A stretch of DNA of 64,000 nt from an uncultured Eubacteriales bacterium. Its GTDB lineage: Bacteria > Bacillota > Clostridia > Oscillospirales > QAMX01. Position numbers and translations under genes: made by a program. Below, piece after piece: positions 10,247-20,523 of this stretch. The stretch covers positions 6,527-70,526 of the forward strand of contig CAUGMN010000003.1 of assembly GCA_959600635.1 (NCBI GenBank), written 5' to 3'. The notes beneath the pieces are model-generated. The model did not search any database. It was not told the origin of the DNA and saw nothing but the letters and a program-made list of their open reading frames with translations. The stretch's first letter is position 1; each line of letters starts with the position of its first letter.

Positions 10247-10870
10247 ATGAAGGTTTTGCTGATTAACGGCAGTCCGCACGAGCGGGGCTGTACCTATACC
10301 GCGCTGTCCGAGGTCGCCGCCGCGCTTGAACGCGAGGGAGTCGGAACGGAAATCGTCCACATCGGCGGCGGCGCCATCGCCGGCTGTTCCGGCTGCGGCG
10401 GCTGCCGAAAGGGCGGCGGCTGTATTCACCAAAACGACAGCGTCAACCGGATTTCGCAGAAAGCCATGGAGAGCGACGGCTTCGTCATCGGCTCGCCCGT
10501 CCACTATGCGGCCGCCTCCGGCGCGCTTACCGCGCTGCTCGACCGCTGCTTCTATTCCAACAGCGCGGCCTTTGCGTATAAGCCCGCGGCCTGCGTGCTC
10601 TCGTGCCGCCGCGCCGGGGCGACGGCGGCGTTTGAACAGCTCAACAAGTATTTTACGATCTCAAATATGCCCGTGGTTTCCTCTAATTATTGGAACATGG
10701 TGCACGGCAACACGCCCGAAGAGGTCCGTCAGGATCTCGAAGGCATGCAGATCATGCGCATCCTCGGCAGAAACATGGCGTGGCTGCTCAAATGTATCGA
10801 CGCGGGCAAGCAAAACGGCGTCGGCCGCCCGGAGAGCGAGCCGAAAATCAGGACGAATTTCATCCGCTGA
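10247..10870 (+). CDS. flavodoxin-like fold NAD(P)H-dependent FMN reductase / iron-sulfur flavoprotein-like
   Basis: MKVLLINGSPHERGCTYTAL opening, Cys cluster CSGCGGCRKGGGC, GSPVHYAAASG motif, GGAGG RBS. Confidence 0.85.
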   Translation: MKVLLINGSPHERGCTYTALSEVAAALEREGVGTEIVHIGGGAIAGCSGCGGCRKGGGCIHQNDSVNRISQKAMESDGFVIGSPVHYAAASGALTALLDRCFYSNSAAFAYKPAACVLSCRRAGATAAFEQLNKYFTISNMPVVSSNYWNMVHGNTPEEVRQDLEGMQIMRILGRNMAWLLKCIDAGKQNGVGRPESEPKIRTNFIR

Positions 10871-11478: not shown

Positions 11479-11700
11479 CGTTCCGATTCCCCCAGTCGTC
11501 TGCCGCTCCCTTTACAGATTGATTATATCGGTCTGTTTCAGCGATGTCAACAGCCTTCATCCGGTTTCTGTGAAAAAATTCGTTTCCGGCAGAATACCTC
11601 GCAGAGTTTCCCGGAGAGATATAAGCGGCGCGCGGCTCTTAGCCGCGCGCCGAAAAAATTCGCATAAGCCTTACGGGCAGAAATCCGCCTCTTTCAACGC

Positions 11701-11913
11701 TCAATGAAAAAAGAACAGATATCCGACGCCGGCCATAGCCAGCAGGATCAACAGCACCACGGGGACAATGACCAGCAGCGCCGACAGAATCATCGCCAGA
11801 AGATCGCCCTTTTCCATGCTGTCTTTCAGCGGCGGCTGCTCCGTTTCGCCGTTTTTCCGCTTTTTGTCGCGCAGCGCGTTGAGCTGACCCTCAAATTTTC
11901 TGCGGAAAAGCAT
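11701..11913 (-). CDS. small membrane protein (70 aa) trailing the ABC operon
   Basis: GAGAGGAAGGGA RBS, 27 nt after the ATPase stop; one clear TM helix (LLAMILSALLVIVPVVLLILLAMAGVGYLFFF). Confidence 0.5.
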   Translation of the reverse strand: MLFRRKFEGQLNALRDKKRKNGETEQPPLKDSMEKGDLLAMILSALLVIVPVVLLILLAMAGVGYLFFFH

Positions 11914-11940
11914 CGCGTCCGTCCCTTCCTCTCCCGCCGC

Positions 11941-13470
11941 TCACGCTTCGCCGCGCTTGATTTCCTCGGCGCGGTGGCATGCGACGAAATGCTCCGGTTT
12001 CAGCTCGCGCCATTCGGGCGCGACGTGCCGGCAGATCTCGGCGCAGTAGGCACAGCGCGTGTGGAATTTGCAGCCCTGCGGCGGATTGACAGGGCTGGGG
12101 ATGTCGCCTTCCAGAATGACGAGATCCTTGCCGCCGTCCGCGTCTGTGGTCGGGATCGCCGCCAGCAGCGCCTGCGTATACGGGTGAAGCGGGTCGGCAA
12201 AGATCTCCCCCGAGGCCGCCAGCTCGACCATATTCCCCAGATACATCACGCCGATACGGTCGCTGATGTATTTGACGACCGAGAGGTCATGCGTGATAAA
12301 GAGATAGGTCAGGTTTTGCTGCTCGCGCAGATCCTGCAAAAGGTTGATAATCTGCGACTGAATCGAAACGTCGAGCGCGGAGACCGCCTCGTCGCAGACG
12401 ATGAATTTCGGCCGCACCGCGAGGCTGCGCGCGATGCCGATGCGCTGGCGCTGTCCGCCCGAAAACTGGTGCGGATAGCGGTGCAGAAAGTACGGCTGCA
12501 AGCCGCACTCGTCCATGACCCGCAGCACCTCCTCCTGCATCCGCTCGTCGTTTTTTCTGAAATAGCCGTGCGCGAGCATTCCCTCGCCAACGATCTGTCC
12601 GACCGTCATGCGCGGGTTCAGCGACGAATACGGGTCTTGGAAAATCAGCTGCAAGTCGCAGCGCAGCGCGCGCATCTCCTCGGTCGTGAGCCGCGCCAGA
12701 TCGATGCCGTCGTCGAGATAAGCTTCGTACCGTGCAAACTCGGCGTTGCCCGCATAGGCGGCGCGCATGGAATCAATCTTCGCCTCAGCCGCGCCCAGCT
12801 CCGCGTCGATTGCGCCGAGCGCTTTGTCGGCCGCGGCGAGCGCGGCGTCAAGGCGTTTCAGCTTTTCTCCGCCCTTTCCGCTCTTCTGACACCGGTAGGC
12901 GCAGTCGTCATGATCGAGCTGGAGTTTCTTTTTCCGGTTCAGCGCGTCGCGCCGTTTGAGGCTGAGGCGGTAAACGGCCATGAACGCCTCCTCCACCGGC
13001 CGGTAGTCCTCGGCAATCAGGAAACCGCCGATGAGATTGGCGAGATCGAGCAGAGCGTCGTGCGCCTCCTTGACGGCGCGGTCGTATGCATCGTGCAGCT
13101 TGAAGCGGCCCTGTTCGTCGGCCTCGTCATAGAGCTTTTTCATCGCGTCGCGCTTGGATTCGCAGATTTGCAGCTGTCTGCGCTTTTTCGTCAGGCTTTT
13201 CAGCGTTTTTTTCACATACTTCGGCGCGATGTCTTTCAGGGAGCGGCCGTAATACATGGTGCGCCCGTCGGTCTGGCGGTAGAGCTGCAAAAGCGTCCGG
13301 CCGAGCGTCGACTTTCCGCAGCCCGACTCGCCGACCAGCCCGAAGACCTCGCCCTCGTAGATATCGACGGATATCCCGTCGTTGGCCTTGACATAGAGGC
13401 CGCGCTTTTTCAGCGGAAAATACTGTTTCAGTCCGCTGATGCGCAGCAGAACCTTTTTATCGTTCGCCAT
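11941..13470 (-). CDS. Opp/Dpp-type ABC ATP-binding protein (OppF-like) with a ~185-aa helical insert
   Basis: Walker A GESGCGKST, FQDPYSSLNP, LSGGQRQR signature, Walker B FIVCDEAVSALD and the C-terminal oligopeptide-type Cys/His tail. 509 aa, versus about 320 aa typical. Confidence 0.9.
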   Translation of the reverse strand: MANDKKVLLRISGLKQYFPLKKRGLYVKANDGISVDIYEGEVFGLVGESGCGKSTLGRTLLQLYRQTDGRTMYYGRSLKDIAPKYVKKTLKSLTKKRRQLQICESKRDAMKKLYDEADEQGRFKLHDAYDRAVKEAHDALLDLANLIGGFLIAEDYRPVEEAFMAVYRLSLKRRDALNRKKKLQLDHDDCAYRCQKSGKGGEKLKRLDAALAAADKALGAIDAELGAAEAKIDSMRAAYAGNAEFARYEAYLDDGIDLARLTTEEMRALRCDLQLIFQDPYSSLNPRMTVGQIVGEGMLAHGYFRKNDERMQEEVLRVMDECGLQPYFLHRYPHQFSGGQRQRIGIARSLAVRPKFIVCDEAVSALDVSIQSQIINLLQDLREQQNLTYLFITHDLSVVKYISDRIGVMYLGNMVELAASGEIFADPLHPYTQALLAAIPTTDADGGKDLVILEGDIPSPVNPPQGCKFHTRCAYCAEICRHVAPEWRELKPEHFVACHRAEEIKRGEA

Positions 13471-14455
13471 GCCTGTCCTCCTCCCTCGGATAGAAGCAGC
13501 GGATCTGCTGAACGTCGGAAACCTTCGTCAGTTCCGGCTCCTCCTCGCGGCACCGCTCGGTCGCAAACTTGCAGCGAGGCGCGAATTTACAGCCTTTCGG
13601 CAGGTCGAGCGGATGCGGCACGGCGCCCGGAATCGCTTCCAGCCGGACGTTCATGGGCGTATCCAGCCGCGGGACCGACATCATCAGGTCGTGCGTATAG
13701 GGGTGCGAGTATTCCGGCTTGGAAAACAGCACGCGCGCGGGCGACATCTCGACGACCTGCCCGCAGTACATGACCGCCACGTCGTCGGCCATCTGGTTGA
13801 TCACGCCCAAATCGTGGGTGATAAACAGAATCGACGTGCCGTGCTCCTTTTTGAGGTCGTTCATCAGTTTTAAAATCTGCGCCTGAATCGTGACGTCAAG
13901 GGCGGTCGTCGGCTCGTCCGCGATCAGCAGCTTGGGGCGGCATGCGAGCGCCATGGCGATCATCACGCGCTGCCGCATTCCGCCGGAGAGCTGATGCGGA
14001 TACTGCCTGGCGACGATTTCGGGGTTGGGAATTTTGACGTCGGCGAGCATCTCGACAACGCGCTTCTCCGCCTCTTTTTTGGAAAGCCCCTGATGGATCA
14101 GAAACGGCTCCTGCATCTGGCGCATGATTGTAAAGACCGGATTCAGGCTCGTCATCGGCTCCTGAAAGATCACAGAGATATCGTTGCCGCGGATCTTGTA
14201 CATCTGCTCGATGCTCAGCTTTGTGAGGTCGGTGCCGTTGAAGAGGATTTCGCCGCTGTCGATATAGCCGTTGCCGTCGAGCAGGCGCAGAATGCTCATC
14301 GCTGAGACGCTCTTGCCCGAGCCGGATTCGCCGACGACGCCGAGCGTTTTCCCCGCCTCGACGCTGTACGAGACGTCGTTGACCGCCTTAACGGTGCCGC
14401 GCCGCGTTTTGAAGAAGGTTTTCAGATGTTTTAATTCCAAAAGCGCCATATCCAA
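13457..14455 (-). CDS. Opp/Dpp-type ABC ATP-binding protein (OppD-like)
   Basis: [16 protein letters not shown] and [12 protein letters not shown] motifs; 332 aa; overlaps the downstream ATPase gene by 14 nt. Confidence 0.92.
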
Positions 14456-14463
14456 ACTCCTCC

Positions 14464-16305
14464 CTACCGTTCACGCGACTTTGGATCGATGGCGTCCCGC
14501 AGGCCGTCGCCGATGGTGTTGATACAGATCGTACAGATGCCGAAGATCAGCGCCGTAAACACCCACTGCCACCAGTACTGCTGGATGACGATGGAGTTGT
14601 TCGCGCCTTTGAGCATGTTGCCCCAGGTCGGCTGCGGCGGCGAAACGCCGAAGCCGAGATAGGAGAGCGAGGATTCCGTCAGCATGCTCGTGGCAAAGTC
14701 GAGCGTGGCGCTGACGACGACGATTGAAATCACGTTGGGCAGAATGTGCCGGAAGAGAATCTTGCGCTCGCGCACGCCCATGGCCTTTGCAGCGGTCACA
14801 TATTCGCTCTCTCTCGCTGAGAAAATCTGCGCGCGCACCAGGCGGCAGATGCTCGTCCATGACAGCACGCCGAGAATCACCATAATCAGATAAATCCGCT
14901 GCGATTCGCTCATCAGCGAGCCGACCACCGCCGACATAATCATCGCAAACGGCAGGAACGGCAGACCGCCGACAATCTCGGCGACGCGCATGATCACCGT
15001 GTCGACCTTTCCGCCGAAGTAACCGGCCAGAGAGCCGAGCAGAACGCCGATAATCGTCGAGATAATCACCGCGACGGCGCCGACCGTCATCGTCATACGG
15101 CCGCCGTTAATCAGGCGTGTCAAAACGTCGCGGCCGAGCCCGTCGGTGCCGAGAATATAGCCCTTCAAGCCCCATTTATACAGCTCGCCGCTCTCGGTAA
15201 CCGCGTAATTCTGGTAATAGTCGGTATAAAAAGCGGCGGTCGTTTCCTTTGCAAGCCCGGACGGTACGCTCGCCTGGCCGAAGCTGTCGTCGCCCCAGCA
15301 GTAGAGCTTACCGGTATCGGTCAGAGCCGTATAGTGGTATTTCCCGCCCTGAATTTTCACAAATTTCCCGTCGGTCTGCTGGGGAATCTGCTGTTCGCCG
15401 TGCATGGTGTTGCCCCAGACCACAATCGACCCGTCTTTCAGGAGCGCGGCGCAGCTCGAATCGCCGGCCGCGATGTCGACGACGTTGCCGCCGCTGGCAA
15501 TCGCTTCCGGAATCGTCGAAATCGAGCTGCTCTTCATGCCCGTAAAGGCGACGTTTCCGTCGTTGAGCAGCGAGATATAGCCAAACGAGGTCAGCGCTAC
15601 CTTATCGATGCGGCCCTGAAATTCCTCCTTGACCTTGGCATCCACGTTCAGCATGTTGCCCCACATATAGAGATAGCCGTCATGGGTGACGACCGCCGAG
15701 ATCTGGTTTCCGGCTTCGAGCTGCTTGACGTCCTCCGCTTTCAATTTGCCGAGGGAGTTGGGCATGACGTCCTGCCCGTTCATCGTGGAGCCCCAGACGT
15801 AGAAGTCGCCTCTGTCGTCCATGGCGACGACATGGTCGACGCCCGCCGCGACGCGGATAATTTTGGCGTTCTTCACCGCCGTTGGAATTTTGGCGACGTT
15901 GCGCGTGCGGCTCATCTTCGTCTTGCCCCATGTATAGACCGTGCCCTCGCTGTCTATGCCTACACCGAAGCGCGCGGACGCGGACAGCTGTACGATGTCC
16001 TTTTCCAGCGCCGACGGCACGCTCATCATGTTCTTTCCGGGCGCGATGTTGCTCTGCGAGTTGTCGCTGTATCCCAGATCAAGAGGAAAAAAGAGCGGTC
16101 CGATCATGACGAACAGGAAAATCAGCAAAAAGACCACGAGCGCTGTCATCGCCAGCTTGTTGTGCAGAAAGTGCTTGATAATGGTTCGGATCGGGCTTTG
16201 AACCTGTTCTTCCTCAAAGACGTTCATCTCATTCTGAGCGCCGAAAAACAGACGTCTGAACCACCCGAAACGCTTCGGATTCTTTTTCTTCTCGGATTTT
16301 TCCAT
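14464..16305 (-). CDS. Opp/Dpp-type ABC permease (OppC-like) with a ~300-aa RCC1-like beta-propeller inserted after TM1
   Basis: TM1, then repeated G.vY.WG.n..GQ...P blades (TVYTWGKT, DFYVWGSTMNGQDVMP, YLYMWGN, SIVVWGNTMHGEQQIP, KLYCWGDDSFGQASVP, ELYKWG), then the canonical GTDGLGRDVLTRL motif and permease core. ATG at 16305 with a GAGGGGA RBS is preferred; a GTG at 16320 is possible. Confidence 0.88.
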   Translation of the reverse strand: MEKSEKKKNPKRFGWFRRLFFGAQNEMNVFEEEQVQSPIRTIIKHFLHNKLAMTALVVFLLIFLFVMIGPLFFPLDLGYSDNSQSNIAPGKNMMSVPSALEKDIVQLSASARFGVGIDSEGTVYTWGKTKMSRTRNVAKIPTAVKNAKIIRVAAGVDHVVAMDDRGDFYVWGSTMNGQDVMPNSLGKLKAEDVKQLEAGNQISAVVTHDGYLYMWGNMLNVDAKVKEEFQGRIDKVALTSFGYISLLNDGNVAFTGMKSSSISTIPEAIASGGNVVDIAAGDSSCAALLKDGSIVVWGNTMHGEQQIPQQTDGKFVKIQGGKYHYTALTDTGKLYCWGDDSFGQASVPSGLAKETTAAFYTDYYQNYAVTESGELYKWGLKGYILGTDGLGRDVLTRLINGGRMTMTVGAVAVIISTIIGVLLGSLAGYFGGKVDTVIMRVAEIVGGLPFLPFAMIMSAVVGSLMSESQRIYLIMVILGVLSWTSICRLVRAQIFSARESEYVTAAKAMGVRERKILFRHILPNVISIVVVSATLDFATSMLTESSLSYLGFGVSPPQPTWGNMLKGANNSIVIQQYWWQWVFTALIFGICTICINTIGDGLRDAIDPKSRER

Positions 16306-16316
16306 AGCTTTTCCCC

Positions 16317-17306
16317 TCACTTGTCAACCCGGACGCGCGGGTCGACGAGTCCGTAGCTGAGATCCGTCAGCAGGATTCCGACAAGGCTGACGACCGTGTA
16401 AAACATCTGCATGGCAAGCACGAGCTCATAGTCCTGATTGGTCAGCCCGTTATAATACAAAACGCCCATGCCGTTGAGGGCAAACGTCGTCTCGATGATG
16501 ATGGAACCGCTGAAAATGCTCAGGAACCATCCGATCACCAGCGTGATAACCGGCAGCAGCGCGTTCCGCCACGCGTGGGAGTAAATCACGACCTTTTCGC
16601 GCAGGCCCTTGGCCCGCGCCGTGCGCACATAGTCCATGCTGAGCGCCTCGATCATGGAAGCGCGGACGTAGCGCGTCATGCCGCCCAGCGAAGCCATGGT
16701 CATAACGATCAGCGGCAGCGCGATGTAGTAGAGCTTATCGACGAAAGCGCGCAGCCCCGTATAGGAGGAGCCGGGCGTTTTGATGCCGCTGACCGGAAAA
16801 ATCTGGATCAGCACGCAGAAGAGATAGATCATAATCAGCGCGATAATATAAATCGGGATACTGTATCCGACGATCGAGCTGACCTGCACGGCGTTGTCGA
16901 ACTTCGAGCCCCGTTTGACCGCGCAGCGGATCCCGAGCGGAATCGTAATCGCCAGCGCCAGAATCGTTGAGAAAATGTTGATGAAAATCGTCGTCTTCAT
17001 CGGTTCCTTAATGACGTTGACGACCTCCGTCTTATAAAAGCTGGATGTGCCGAAATCTCCGGTAATCAGGTTTCCAAACCATTTCCCGAAGCGGGCGATC
17101 ATCGGATCGTTGAGGCCGAGCCGTTCCCTTGCGGCCTGATATTCCTGCTCATAGGTGCCCGATTTAATCAGCTCCTGCCGGCGGCTTTCCAGTTCCGCGC
17201 GCGCCGGGTCGCCGGGGATCAGGTTGTACAGATAAAACATCAGAAAGCCGATCACCGTAAAAACTATGGCGATGTACAACAGCCGTTTTAAAATGTATTT
17301 CGTCAT
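16317..17306 (-). CDS. Opp/Dpp-type ABC permease (OppB-like)
   Basis: MTKYILKRLLYIAIVF opening, 6 TM helices, and an EAA-like loop (YVRTARAKGLREKVVIYSHAWRNALLP). Confidence 0.92.
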   Translation of the reverse strand: MTKYILKRLLYIAIVFTVIGFLMFYLYNLIPGDPARAELESRRQELIKSGTYEQEYQAARERLGLNDPMIARFGKWFGNLITGDFGTSSFYKTEVVNVIKEPMKTTIFINIFSTILALAITIPLGIRCAVKRGSKFDNAVQVSSIVGYSIPIYIIALIMIYLFCVLIQIFPVSGIKTPGSSYTGLRAFVDKLYYIALPLIVMTMASLGGMTRYVRASMIEALSMDYVRTARAKGLREKVVIYSHAWRNALLPVITLVIGWFLSIFSGSIIIETTFALNGMGVLYYNGLTNQDYELVLAMQMFYTVVSLVGILLTDLSYGLVDPRVRVDK

Positions 17307-17375
17307 CCGATCACCAAATTTCTAAAAATAATCCTGTTATATGGGGCAGGCAGCGGAGCCATTTCTTTGCCGGCG

Positions 17376-17431
17376 CCGTTCCTTTTGCTTTCGAAGCCGC
17401 GCTCTGCCGGCTCCGAAAGCAAAAGGAACGG
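17376..17431 (-). promoter_or_regulatory. intercistronic stem-loop after the binding-protein gene
   Basis: 18-bp arms CCGTTCCTTTTGCTTTCG / CGAAAGCAAAAGGAACGG with no clean U-tract. Its position between the SBP and permease genes is typical of differential mRNA stability or attenuation elements. Confidence 0.5.
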
Positions 17432-17507
17432 GGAAGGACGGCTCGTTTGATCGTCCCTCCCCGTCGAATTGCGTCAGCAGGTTATGCCAATTTGATCTGA
17501 TTGCTGT

Positions 17508-19430
17508 TTATTCTTCGACCCATGCGTAGAGCAGGCCGTAGGAGAGATCCCAGAATCCGTCGACGTCCCAGTTCTGGAGCTTGTCGTTGTAGACGTCGTG
17601 ATAAATATTGGAGTACAGCGGAATCTCCGGGAGCAGCTCGTTCCAGTGGACGATGAAATCGAACCAATACTGGGCGTAGCTTTCCTTATCGCCTGGCTCA
17701 ACCGCGTAAACCATATCCATGGAGAGCTGGTCGAGCTTTTCGTCGAAGATGTAGTTGGTGTTGTAGCCGGCCGCGACGAGGTCGGGATCCAGCGTAAAGT
17801 TGTACGACTGGTCATAGGCCGGATAGAAGCCGGTCGCCAGGTTGTACATGCCGTAGGTCGGAACGCCGTATGCCTCGCCCTGGGAGGAGTCGCGGTACAT
17901 CCAGTTCAGCAGCTCGGTAAACGTCATGATCTGCTGCTTGATCTGCATACCGGCGTTTTTGACGTTGTCGCTGTTGGCGAGCATGACGCTGAGCAGGTCG
18001 GAGACAGGGTTGCCCTCCGTAGACGCCCACTCGACGATCAGCGGCATCAGGATCGTGCCGTCGGCCAGCGTGACATTGTGCTTGTAGGTGCCGGCTTCCT
18101 CGGCCGTGACCTTCTTATAACGGATGCCGGATTCATAGGCGCCGCCCTCGGCGTTCAGCGTCCAGCCGTCCTCTTCAAGGAGCTTGGTCGCCTCGTCCAT
18201 GCTGAAAGCGTATGTATCGAGCGTCGTGTTGAGCTGGTCTTCCTTTTCCTTATACATCCACATGGCAAAGCCGTAGGGGCCGTGGACAACGGTGCCGAAG
18301 CCGCCGCAGAAGGTGTCGGCAAAGGCGTTGCGGTCAAAGAGATGCGCGATGGCCTTGCGGACGTTGACAAACTGCGTCGGGCCAAAGTCGCACTGGAACT
18401 GGATCTTGCCGTAGCCGTTGCGCTCGTATTTCGTAAAGTCGAAGCCGCCGTTGTCGACGAGCGCGAGCGCCTCCTTGATTTCATCGCCTTCGGAGAGCTG
18501 AACCAGGAAGTCGACCTGACCCGTTTTCAGCTCGTCGATCATCGTCTCAGAGGTGACCTTTTTATAGACCAGCTTCTCGATATTCGGCTTCTGGCCGGTG
18601 TAGTCGCCCTTGTAGTTGTCGTTGATCACAAGCACGGCTTCCAGCGCGGTCTTGTCAAAGCTTTGCAGCGTGTAGGGACCGCAGGAGAGACGGTTTTCAT
18701 TCGCATAGCGGGCGTTTTCAATTGTCTCCGAGCAGTGCTCAAACGTAAATTTGTCGTTGAAGTGCGCGCCTTCGCCCTCGTCGGAGAGATCGACGTCGGC
18801 CGGCAGCCACAGAGCGCGCGGGATCGGCGTGATATCGACGTAGGTGATTTCAAAATAGTACGGCAGGTAATCCGTGGAAACGGTCACGGAGAATTCATAG
18901 TTCCCGAGCAGACGGACGCCGGAGAAAACCCGCGTCGGCTCTTCTTCACCGATATAATTGCCGTCCGCATCCTTTTCTCTGGACGCGGAGTACTCCTGCC
19001 AACCGACAAACGACATGCCATAGGTGCCGCGGGCGCCCATATCCTTAATGATCGGCGAGGAGAACAGCAGGATCTTAGCGACATAGTCCTTGGCGGTGAT
19101 CGGCGTTCCGTCGTTCCATTTCAGGTCTTCCACGAGCTTGACGGTAAACGTCTTGGTGCCGTCTTCGTTGGTCTCCTGGGTAACGGTGGCGACCTTGTCA
19201 TTGTAGACATACTCGGCCTGGCGCGTCAGAGCCACCGGCGAATAACCGTTGATCAGCTCGCGGATATCCGCGTCCGCCGCGTTGTTCTGCCACTGAGCCT
19301 CGCCGAAGTCGCCGGCAAGCTCGGTCGTGTTGCCGATGATCAGCTGGCCGCCGCGGTGATTGGTGCAGCCGGTCAGACCCATTGGGATGATCATGGCAAT
19401 TACGAGCAGGATCAGAATTGCCTTTTTCAT
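17508..19430 (-). CDS. ABC substrate-binding lipoprotein, family 5 (OppA/DppA-like)
   Basis: Lipobox MKKAILILLVIAMIIPMGLTGC; 640 aa; it is the first gene of the operon. Confidence 0.9.
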   Translation of the reverse strand: MKKAILILLVIAMIIPMGLTGCTNHRGGQLIIGNTTELAGDFGEAQWQNNAADADIRELINGYSPVALTRQAEYVYNDKVATVTQETNEDGTKTFTVKLVEDLKWNDGTPITAKDYVAKILLFSSPIIKDMGARGTYGMSFVGWQEYSASREKDADGNYIGEEEPTRVFSGVRLLGNYEFSVTVSTDYLPYYFEITYVDITPIPRALWLPADVDLSDEGEGAHFNDKFTFEHCSETIENARYANENRLSCGPYTLQSFDKTALEAVLVINDNYKGDYTGQKPNIEKLVYKKVTSETMIDELKTGQVDFLVQLSEGDEIKEALALVDNGGFDFTKYERNGYGKIQFQCDFGPTQFVNVRKAIAHLFDRNAFADTFCGGFGTVVHGPYGFAMWMYKEKEDQLNTTLDTYAFSMDEATKLLEEDGWTLNAEGGAYESGIRYKKVTAEEAGTYKHNVTLADGTILMPLIVEWASTEGNPVSDLLSVMLANSDNVKNAGMQIKQQIMTFTELLNWMYRDSSQGEAYGVPTYGMYNLATGFYPAYDQSYNFTLDPDLVAAGYNTNYIFDEKLDQLSMDMVYAVEPGDKESYAQYWFDFIVHWNELLPEIPLYSNIYHDVYNDKLQNWDVDGFWDLSYGLLYAWVEE

Positions 19431-19513
19431 GGTTTTTCCTCCCTTGAACCGTTCGCGCTTTTCGCCGTTCCGTTCCTCCCGTCAAAAAAACACGCCGGTT
19501 TCTGTTTTCAGTC

Positions 19514-19542
19514 ATTATATCACACTCACAACCAAATTACAA
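19514..19542 (-). promoter_or_regulatory. promoter candidate for the Opp-type operon
   Basis: Minus strand reads TTGTAA - 17 nt - TATAAT with TGa extended -10, about 85 nt upstream of the ATG at 19430. Confidence 0.55.
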
Positions 19543-19919: not shown

Positions 19920-20438
19920 TTACAGCCAGGCGACGGCGTCGTCCTTTCGCTGTGCGGCGGCGTTTTTCTGCGCCGCATAGCCGAGCGCGGCGCAGCCCCA
20001 GACGCTGTGATCGTCGGGCAGGCCGAGCGCGCGCAGCGCCGCGCGGACGGCGGGCCGGCCGCACAGCCCCTTGAACTGGTTGATCCAGACCGAGCCGATC
20101 CCCAGCGCGTTGGCCGCTAAAAAGAGATTTTCCAGCGCGCAGGCGCAGTCCTCGACGGCCAGCGGATTGGCGTCGGTGTCGGAGACGAGAATCAGCGCGT
20201 CGGGGCTGTAAAAATCATACGACGCGCCCGCGCCCGTCTCCTCGCCGAGCACGGCGGCGAGGCTGCGAAGCCGCGTTTTGTCCTGCACGACCGTAAAACG
20301 CCGCGTATGCCGGTTGCGGCCGCTCGGCGCGCGCATTCCGGCGAGGACGATCTCTTCCAGTTCGGCGCGCGCGATCGGCTTTTGCTGAAACGCGCGGTCG
20401 CTTTTCCTACTGACGATGCTTGCGATGATCTCGTTCAT
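19920..20438 (-). CDS. nitroreductase family protein
   Basis: MNEIIASIVSRKSDRAFQQKPI...APSGRNRHTRRFTVV. The start is trimmed to the ATG at 20438, which has an AAGGAGGA RBS. Confidence 0.88.
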   Translation of the reverse strand: MNEIIASIVSRKSDRAFQQKPIARAELEEIVLAGMRAPSGRNRHTRRFTVVQDKTRLRSLAAVLGEETGAGASYDFYSPDALILVSDTDANPLAVEDCACALENLFLAANALGIGSVWINQFKGLCGRPAVRAALRALGLPDDHSVWGCAALGYAAQKNAAAQRKDDAVAWL

Positions 20439-20492
20439 TTTATCCTCCTTTTGATATGGGTGGGGGGGGAGATAGGCAGGCGCCCCGGCACA

Positions 20493-20523
20493 GCGGGCGC
20501 GCACACAGGTGCGCCCCTACGGC
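20493..20523. repeat. REP-like GC-rich palindromic element (copy 3, inverted)
   Basis: The reverse complement reads CCGTAGGGGCGCACCTGTGTGCGCGCCCGC, matching the elements at 3578 and 3863. The adjacent CTACGGCATCAAACGGTTTT resembles part of the 52-bp unit. Confidence 0.75.

Follow-up and report, generated by a model that had tools for sequence, protein, structure and literature searches.

Peptide importers of the Opp/Dpp type are textbook transporters. The solved ones with which the present locus can be compared (E. coli OppBCDF, 8z21; E. coli DppABCDF, 8z1v-8z1z; M. tuberculosis OppABCD, 8j5q-8j5t) combine an OppC-type permease with an OppB-type partner, two oligo_HPY ATPases and a family-5 substrate-binding protein (SBP). 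The OppC-type permease has a first transmembrane helix (TM1) of the OppC_N kind, a GTD.LGRD junction and a BPD_transp_1 core with its EAA coupling loop, and the solved Opp/Dpp permeases matched in this work show only short external loops. Among type I importers of the ATP-binding cassette (ABC) class, the one well-studied permease known to bear a large, folded domain outside the membrane is MalF of the E. coli maltose importer MalFGK2-E, whose P2 loop contacts the SBP MalE. Here we describe a cassette in a 64,000-nt stretch of contig CAUGMN010000003.1 from an uncultured Eubacteriales bacterium of the gut Clostridia (hereafter the window; all coordinates are positions in it, and the cassette genes lie on the minus strand). 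It is nearly certain that 11626-19542 is one six-gene Opp-type (PepT family, type I) ABC importer cassette, with oligopeptides as its most probable cargo, in which the short extracytoplasmic TM1-TM2 loop of OppC has been replaced by a complete seven-bladed RCC1/BLIP-II-like β-propeller, and that this propeller is conserved in Clostridia and Erysipelotrichaceae of the gut and rumen, where it makes up one clade.

The OppC_N helix, the BPD_transp_1 core with its EAA loop, the GTD.LGRD junction, the OppB partner, the paired oligo_HPY ATPases and the family-5 SBP of the solved importers are all present in this cassette. Unlike in those systems, the ~11-residue TM1-TM2 loop has become ~297 residues holding the propeller, OppF carries a 170-residue insert and a sixth gene specifies a small single-pass protein. 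The propeller is comparable to MalF P2 in that both are large extracytoplasmic domains set in a permease loop of a type I importer. This is a functional analogy only, as MalF P2 has an immunoglobulin-like (Ig-like) fold, occupies the TM3-TM4 loop, belongs to a different transporter family and has no sequence relationship to the domain described here. With BLIP-II (1jtd, 3qhy, 3qi0) the domain shares a compact seven-bladed RCC1-type propeller, blades of ~40 residues and an extracytoplasmic location. However, BLIP-II is a free secreted Streptomyces protein, whereas the OppC propeller is internal to a polytopic membrane protein and has no evident β-lactamase link. No account of an RCC1 domain or propeller paired with OppC, OppF or an oligopeptide ABC permease was found in the literature searched (~8.4 million texts); the combination is widespread (see below) and without a description there.

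The domain inserted in OppC

An earlier note, made from the letters of the window alone, had recognized an RCC1-like propeller in OppC, and repeat profiles, a predicted structure and fold comparison all bear this out. The motifs it had quoted (TVYTWGKT, DFYVWGSTMNGQDVMP, YLYMWGN, SIVVWGNTMHGEQQIP, KLYCWGDDSFGQASVP and ELYKWG) all occur in the OppC translation, and the segment 15138-16038 in which it placed the domain encodes OppC residues 95-394. In Pfam searches, OppC_N (PF12911) matches OppC residues 42-94 with 40.4 bits (cut-off 23.9) and BPD_transp_1 (PF00528) matches residues 425-616 with 117.2 bits. Between the two lie five stretches matched by RCC1_2, together scoring 107.9 bits against a cut-off of 22 (E 1.4e-31). 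The RCC1 model is also reached, with 21.9 bits against 21.7, and the whole-domain model WD40_RLD scores 130.4, short of its cut-off of 150. The coupling loop is intact, with the six residues of the pattern E506..A510 A511..G515..I526.P528 invariant in the family alignment. These domain signals and the alignment far exceed what is expected by chance. OppC shows all structural hallmarks of the OppC/DppC superfamily but falls in no named NCBIfam equivalog: the best model, Opp4C, scores 313.8 against a cut-off of 350 and is split in two stretches by the insert.

An AlphaFold2 (AF2) model of OppC computed from a 52-sequence alignment has a predicted local distance difference test score (pLDDT) of 82.9 and a predicted template-modelling score (pTM) of 0.71, with the propeller mostly above 90. 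The model predicts a closed seven-bladed fold, with strand groups starting at residues 111/118, 154, 198, 238, 280, 320 and 361, so that of the six to seven blades counted earlier from the repeats, seven is the number that stands and six is not. The propeller lies between the helix at 55-77 (TM1) and that at 399-435 (TM2). In Foldseek searches of the PDB, BLIP-II comes first (3qi0, 3qhy, 1jtd; target-normalized TM-score 0.75-0.77, root-mean-square deviation (rmsd) 2.5-2.8 Å, 26% identity), followed by UVR8, with HERC2 and RCC1 also among the matches. A phmmer comparison of the propeller with BLIP-II gives an E value of 7e-22. The repeat models and the predicted fold together place the domain in the RCC1/BLIP-II fold class.

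The membrane part of OppC superimposes on E. coli OppC (8z21_B) with an rmsd of 2.5 and 42% identity in Foldseek, and in a phmmer search against the PDB residues 29-68 and 80-302 of 8z21_B align with query residues 47-88 and 386-616, respectively. This alignment on either side of the insert means that ~297 residues replace ~11 of the periplasmic TM1-TM2 loop, very close to the ~300 extra residues between TM1 and GTDGLGRD that had been estimated before. Homology to the solved OppC and DppC structures and the positive-inside rule, with 12 Lys or Arg among the 54 N-terminal residues indicating an N-in orientation, put the propeller on the extracytoplasmic side. Hence, its assignment to the first extracytoplasmic loop is upheld and the cytoplasmic alternative fails.

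The attachment of the domain is itself conserved. The linker (residues 78-105) has the consensus LDLSYQDNTQ.NVPPG.NMMSVP with several invariant residues, and the last strand of the propeller joins, with no flexible linker, the invariant WGLKGY..GTD.LGRD junction ahead of TM2. This direct exit into an invariant junction, combined with the conserved entry, suggests a rigid mounting of the propeller at the membrane-proximal face of OppC. Polar and aromatic residues conserved in the loops (D162, H163, Q206, H329, Q370, N371 and Y372) form a ring on blades 6-7-1-2-3, and the propeller is acidic in every family member (net charge -1 to -27). As regards the start of the protein, the longest open reading frame (ORF) opens at GTG 16320. 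Two observations make 16305 the probable true start: no family member in the alignment departs from the methionine at position 6 (ATG 16305), and a 98%-identical database protein (P0001) has 613 aa.

Occurrence of the propeller cassette and its sister lineage

A search with the propeller region matched 1,163 clusters at 90% identity, and most of the 120 matches listed are ~596-619 aa long and have the architecture OppC_N + RCC1_2 + BPD_transp_1. For gene-neighborhood comparison we took the best 80 of 542 relatives in species-representative genomes, one genome per species (individual genome loci are labelled from L001 onward). OppC is a single intact ORF of ~600-657 aa in all 80, and the order SBP-OppB-OppC-OppD-OppF is equally constant (80/80). 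A 280-residue propeller is thus fixed on OppC in at least 80 species-level loci of gut and rumen anaerobes, including the cultured strains Hungatella effluvii DSM 24995 (L004), Erysipelotrichaceae bacterium NK3D112 (L074) and Falcatimonas sp. MSJ-15 (L079). In a tree of the OppC membrane domain, OppD and the OppF core, the propeller cassettes are monophyletic with a Shimodaira-Hasegawa-like approximate likelihood-ratio (SH-aLRT) support of 100. The earlier suggestion of a distinct transporter subtype is therefore well founded in the fixed gene order, the breadth of the clusters and the clade.

The same data render negligible the chance that the long OppC frame is an artefact of two fused genes or of a chimeric contig. 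Metagenome assemblies do hold propeller-less OppC proteins that are 65-74% identical in the membrane domain, which could be taken in its favor, although the window itself offers nothing for it. It is contradicted by the uninterrupted frame in independent genomes, three of them from cultured isolates, and by the AF2 model, which is one confident chain. The propeller-less close relatives (P0140, P0155, P0161/164/172, P0180/181 and P0187/199) were set aside as probable assembly chimeras and not used as evidence: the contigs examined are short with 1.7-9x coverage, and in three of four the divergent N-terminal part lies at the contig end, while the fourth (L082) encodes an OppB of only 30% identity and an OppD of 79% identity. 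In the ENA metagenome contigs L081-L084, the C-terminal halves of OppC are propeller-family-like (~65-74% identical to that of the window), several being identical to each other, and the N-terminal halves are unrelated. The contigs have low coverage, and chimeric assembly, with the join at the conserved GTD.LGRD region, is the probable origin of these sequences.

A propeller-less sister lineage of a different kind was traced from the SBP. The closest solved sequence to the SBP is that of 9p48/9p49, labelled "OppA" (E 3e-46 with the family profile), which shares its N-terminal hallmark motif GDF..WTN..D..IR and matches proteins of Treponema, including one of T. denticola, at 86-96% identity; no paper on 9p48/9p49 was found in the literature searched. 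The T. denticola operon specifies OppA (591 residues), OppB (341), OppC (338), OppD (330), OppF (385) and a 69-residue protein. It lies at L085:9001-15246 (CP051302.1), and its OppA is 86% identical over 407 residues to the 9p48/9p49 chain. The same layout recurs in Sporosalibacterium faouarense (L087) and in L088, and these sister cassettes, seen in T. denticola and some Clostridia, form a clade of their own (SH-aLRT 99 in the same tree). They have in common with the cassette of the window the six-gene order, the SBP motif, a homologous small protein (E 5e-17 to 2e-11 against the small-protein profile, the T. denticola protein giving 5e-17) and an OppD and OppF core that are 59-63% identical. 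They differ in two subunits. OppC, at 338-347 aa, lacks the propeller (also in T. denticola), has a short loop and ends in a Lys-rich tail. OppF has 330-392 aa, and its insert is absent or consists of 55 residues at a different site. In T. denticola the latter stands before Walker A. The OppF of L088 has a normal length of 330 aa, and an M3 peptidase gene follows that cassette.

The propeller is also found apart from the other additions. In L072 and L075, both uncultured Lachnospiraceae that branch first inside the propeller clade, the propeller is kept, OppF has a normal length with the 170-residue insert cleanly absent, and there is no small-protein gene. Propeller and OppF insert are not strictly co-inherited, and in view of these two loci and of the propeller-less cassettes with a small protein, propeller, insert and small protein are separable. 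The propeller-less sister cassette with its solved SBP type and the propeller lineage without an OppF insert provide natural controls for dissecting the system.

A further large insertion was seen in L048, where a second, unrelated Opp operon (L048:1259-5902) adjoins the propeller cassette. Its OppC (630 aa) has a ~355-residue insert in the same TM1-TM2 loop with no Pfam family or PDB sequence match, and its OppD (498 aa) and OppF (422 aa) carry inserts too. This loop of OppC seems to be a recurrent insertion hot spot.

Cargo, binding protein and possible roles of the propeller

The SBP has an LTGC lipobox and a conserved mature N-terminal motif, G..I.G.TTE..GD...W.NN..D. Its AF2 model (pLDDT 93.9, pTM 0.90) finds its nearest solved folds in B. 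subtilis AppA (1xoc, a nonapeptide complex) and L. lactis OppA (3drj). Peptidase genes of the families M3 (10 loci), M20 (8) and M29 (4) lie near the cassette, jointly in 19 of the 80 loci within 6 kb; apart from these families, no conserved flanking genes were found across the 80 loci. The predicted SBP fold and the neighboring peptidase genes point to peptides as the probable cargo. The description of the 640-aa SBP as "unusually large" was overstated: it exceeds its relatives by only ~30-50 residues, spread over scattered indels of 3-10 residues, and has no extra domain. In L001:4453-8801 and L079:4256-8828, two tandem paralogous SBP genes stand upstream of a single translocator.

About 25 of 58 family SBPs lack the lipobox Cys and have AxA-type signal peptides instead, a trait that arose at least twice. 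We considered whether such unanchored SBPs signify retention of the SBP by the propeller and rejected this, since other SBPs and exported proteins of the same loci also lack a lipobox (for example, L061:19450-20595 and L033:149-2200), and those of lipoprotein-clade loci do carry one; loss of the anchor is therefore lineage-wide and not specific to the family. The AxA signals of signal peptidase I type without a lipobox occur in two clades (L010, L011, L017 and L025-L063), one Christensenellales-like and the other a large group of rumen and gut 'Clostridia bacterium RGIG' genomes, and lipoboxes are used by the clades next to them; this suggests an unusual envelope or mode of anchoring in the two lineages.

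The reading that we tentatively favor, with a probability of roughly 0.4, is that the propeller serves as a rigid external platform on the OppC side of the translocator, beside the docking site of the SBP. The domain would stand next to the place where the SBP caps OppB and OppC, and could either offer the SBP a further surface to dock on or shut the chamber between SBP and translocator on its OppC side during the hand-over of long peptides. Such a role would be analogous, not homologous, to those of the MalF P2 loop and of the scoop motif in the TM1-TM2 region of DppB. In the DppABCDF importer of E. coli, both permeases are capped by the SBP, whose cleft is entered by the DppB scoop (a periplasmic α1-loop-α2 element between TM1 and TM2); the scoop also seals the cavity that faces outward (PMC12136057). 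A folded OppC domain at the position equivalent to the scoop, in the pseudo-symmetric partner subunit, would accordingly be expected to stand beside the docked SBP, with the difference that the scoop is flexible and ~30 residues long, whereas the propeller is predicted to be rigid and comprises 280.

Several observations weigh against this platform role. With the tree of 49 operons kept fixed, rate covariation was computed for eight partitions; propeller and SBP reach a rho of 0.35 under one normalization, but the standard one gives 0.13 (p 0.22, not significant). The only stable blocks are an outer one (SBP, OppB and propeller) and a cytoplasmic one (OppD, OppF core and OppF insert). The conserved polar loop residues of the propeller are equally compatible with a ligand site or with packing on the surface of the membrane domain. 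An SBP-specific extra domain accompanying the propeller was sought by comparison with sister-family SBPs and rejected, as only the small indels mentioned above distinguish them. Finally, the sister cassettes presumably import peptides without a propeller, which would make it dispensable for the basic function. Charge complementarity between propeller and SBP was likewise considered and rejected, both being acidic with positively correlated charges (rho 0.69).

The ring of conserved loop residues and the acidic net charge in every member would also suit a ligand-binding or tethering module that captures peptides, muropeptides or a host or wall polymer, and so concentrates substrate or anchors the transporter in the wall. 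A search with the propeller alone against 1.84 billion representative proteins matched 80,625 at E <= 0.001, and the best 150 (P0241-P0390) are giant multi-repeat proteins of 1,400-7,000 aa whose RCC1_2 blades are 30-41% identical to those of OppC; six that were scanned contain Ig-like, S-layer homology (SLH), cadherin-like or other surface domains. Their scores sum over many blades, so that the search is unhelpful for finding the donor of the propeller, but the likeness of the blades to these giant multi-propeller surface proteins suggests recruitment from a pool of surface binding modules. Nevertheless, we consider such a capture or tethering role unlikely: a dedicated SBP of typical peptide-binding fold is already part of the cassette, the mounting at the membrane surface appears rigid with no stalk able to reach the wall, and no known carbohydrate- or peptidoglycan-binding family matches the propeller in the Pfam scan.

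The kinship with BLIP-II raises another possibility, namely that the propeller docks a partner other than the SBP, such as a surface protease or peptidase or an enzyme of the penicillin-binding fold, and thereby feeds the products of proteolysis or wall turnover into uptake. BLIP-II, the closest solved relative in both fold and sequence, binds class A β-lactamases via one face of its propeller, and RCC1-like propellers are generally protein-binding platforms, as in UVR8, RCC1 and HERC2. However, identity to BLIP-II is only 26%, and no candidate partner gene is conserved beside the cassette, the recurrent neighbors being the M3, M20 and M29 peptidase families; we rate docking of such a partner as somewhat less likely still than ligand capture. 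A bolder version, which we regard as improbable, would make the propeller a built-in docking receptor of a channelled machine, in which the partner (the SBP through its whole cycle, or a surface protease or wall-turnover enzyme) is held at the mouth of the translocator and long peptides are never released on their way from capture or cleavage to import.

Were the propeller to dock the SBP or some other partner, this would change the picture of substrate hand-over in Gram-positive peptide importers and open a way to study how abundant gut Clostridia feed on peptides. If the channelled machine existed, type I ABC importers would gain a new subclass, one whose permease, and not the SBP alone, takes part in extracellular recognition.

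The remaining additions lie on the cytoplasmic side or in the membrane. Residues 1-83 and 255-504 of OppF align with solved OppF and OppD. The insert between them has no PDB match and is the fastest-evolving partition (its tree length is 25, that of the OppF core 9). The small protein of ~70 residues has a basic N-terminus, an EKGD..AM motif and one TM helix, matches no Pfam family and, by a family profile search, has a homologue directly after OppF in 64 of the 69 OppF-containing loci. DppC pairs with DppF in E. coli (PMC12136057), and by homology OppC would pair with OppF, which puts the propeller and the OppF insert on the same half-transporter. One could thus envisage propeller, insert and small protein as a single transmembrane axis of sensing or regulation on the OppC-OppF half, all three features occurring together in 64 of the 69 loci. 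Against this, L072 and L075, at the base of the propeller clade, keep the propeller without the other two, the small protein is present in the propeller-less cassettes of T. denticola, Sporosalibacterium and L088 (the last of which has an OppF of normal length), and the rates of propeller and OppF insert do not covary (rho 0.07 and -0.15). Given this separability and the absent covariation, such a signalling axis is very unlikely. Under the favored platform role, the OppF insert and the small membrane protein would be separate cytoplasmic and membrane add-ons outside the mechanism of the propeller.

Cassette layout and neighboring features

The features of the cassette are collected in Table 1. 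The six genes are bracketed by a promoter-like site at 19542-19514 and, at 11652-11626, by a strong hairpin whose pattern makes it a probable end of the transcription unit. OppB scores 261.8 with the NCBIfam model Opp4B, under its cut-off, and an Rfam scan of the operon gave nothing credible.

Table 1. Features of the propeller cassette, by position in the 64,000-nt window
Feature	Position	Strand	Basis or remark
Promoter-like site TTGTAA-17-TATAAT with extended TG, 5' of the SBP gene	19514..19542	-	consensus match only, not function
Family-5 substrate-binding lipoprotein (SBP), 640 aa	17508..19430	-	Pfam SBP_bac_5 135 bits; AF2 pLDDT 93.9
OppB-type permease, 329 aa	16317..17306	-	BPD_transp_1 and BPD_transp_1_N
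OppC-type permease containing the propeller, 618 aa if begun at GTG, probably 613 aa (ATG 16305)	14464..16320	-	
OppC cytoplasmic N-terminus and TM1 (helix 55-77)	16090..16320	-	OppC_N match, AF2 helices, charge count
TM1-to-propeller linker, 28 residues (78-105)	16006..16089	-	mean column conservation 0.65
Predicted seven-bladed RCC1/BLIP-II-like β-propeller, OppC residues 106-385	15166..16005	-	RCC1_2, AF2, Foldseek, phmmer
OppC core membrane domain, TM2-TM6 including EAA coupling loop	14467..15165	-	BPD_transp_1; match to E. coli OppC 8z21_B
OppD ATPase of normal length (332 aa), ending in an oligo_HPY domain that contains four Cys	13457..14455	-	
OppF ATPase, 509 aa	11941..13470	-	ABC_tran match split into two stretches
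OppF insert, ~170 residues, K/E/A/L-rich, residues ~84-254, between Walker A and Q-loop region	12709..13221	-	
Sixth gene, 70-residue single-pass membrane protein	11701..11913	-	ORF; homologues downstream of OppF
GC-rich hairpin, strong, 12 pairs (11 G-C), 3' of the small gene	11626..11652	-	pattern match only

The C-termini of OppD (13457-13560) and OppF (11941-12060) are Cys-rich, with the motifs GCKFAPRC...C...C and GCKFHTRCAYCAEIC...C, respectively. They resemble the four-Cys sites of E. coli DppD and DppF, which hold [4Fe-4S] clusters (PMC12136057). The cassette is flanked in the window by genes for a flavin mononucleotide (FMN) reductase and a nitroreductase (10247-10870 on the plus strand and 19920-20504 on the minus strand), and in Sporosalibacterium genes of the FMN reductase and nitroreductase families also lie just downstream of the sister cassette (L087:16484-17854), which may be a coincidence.

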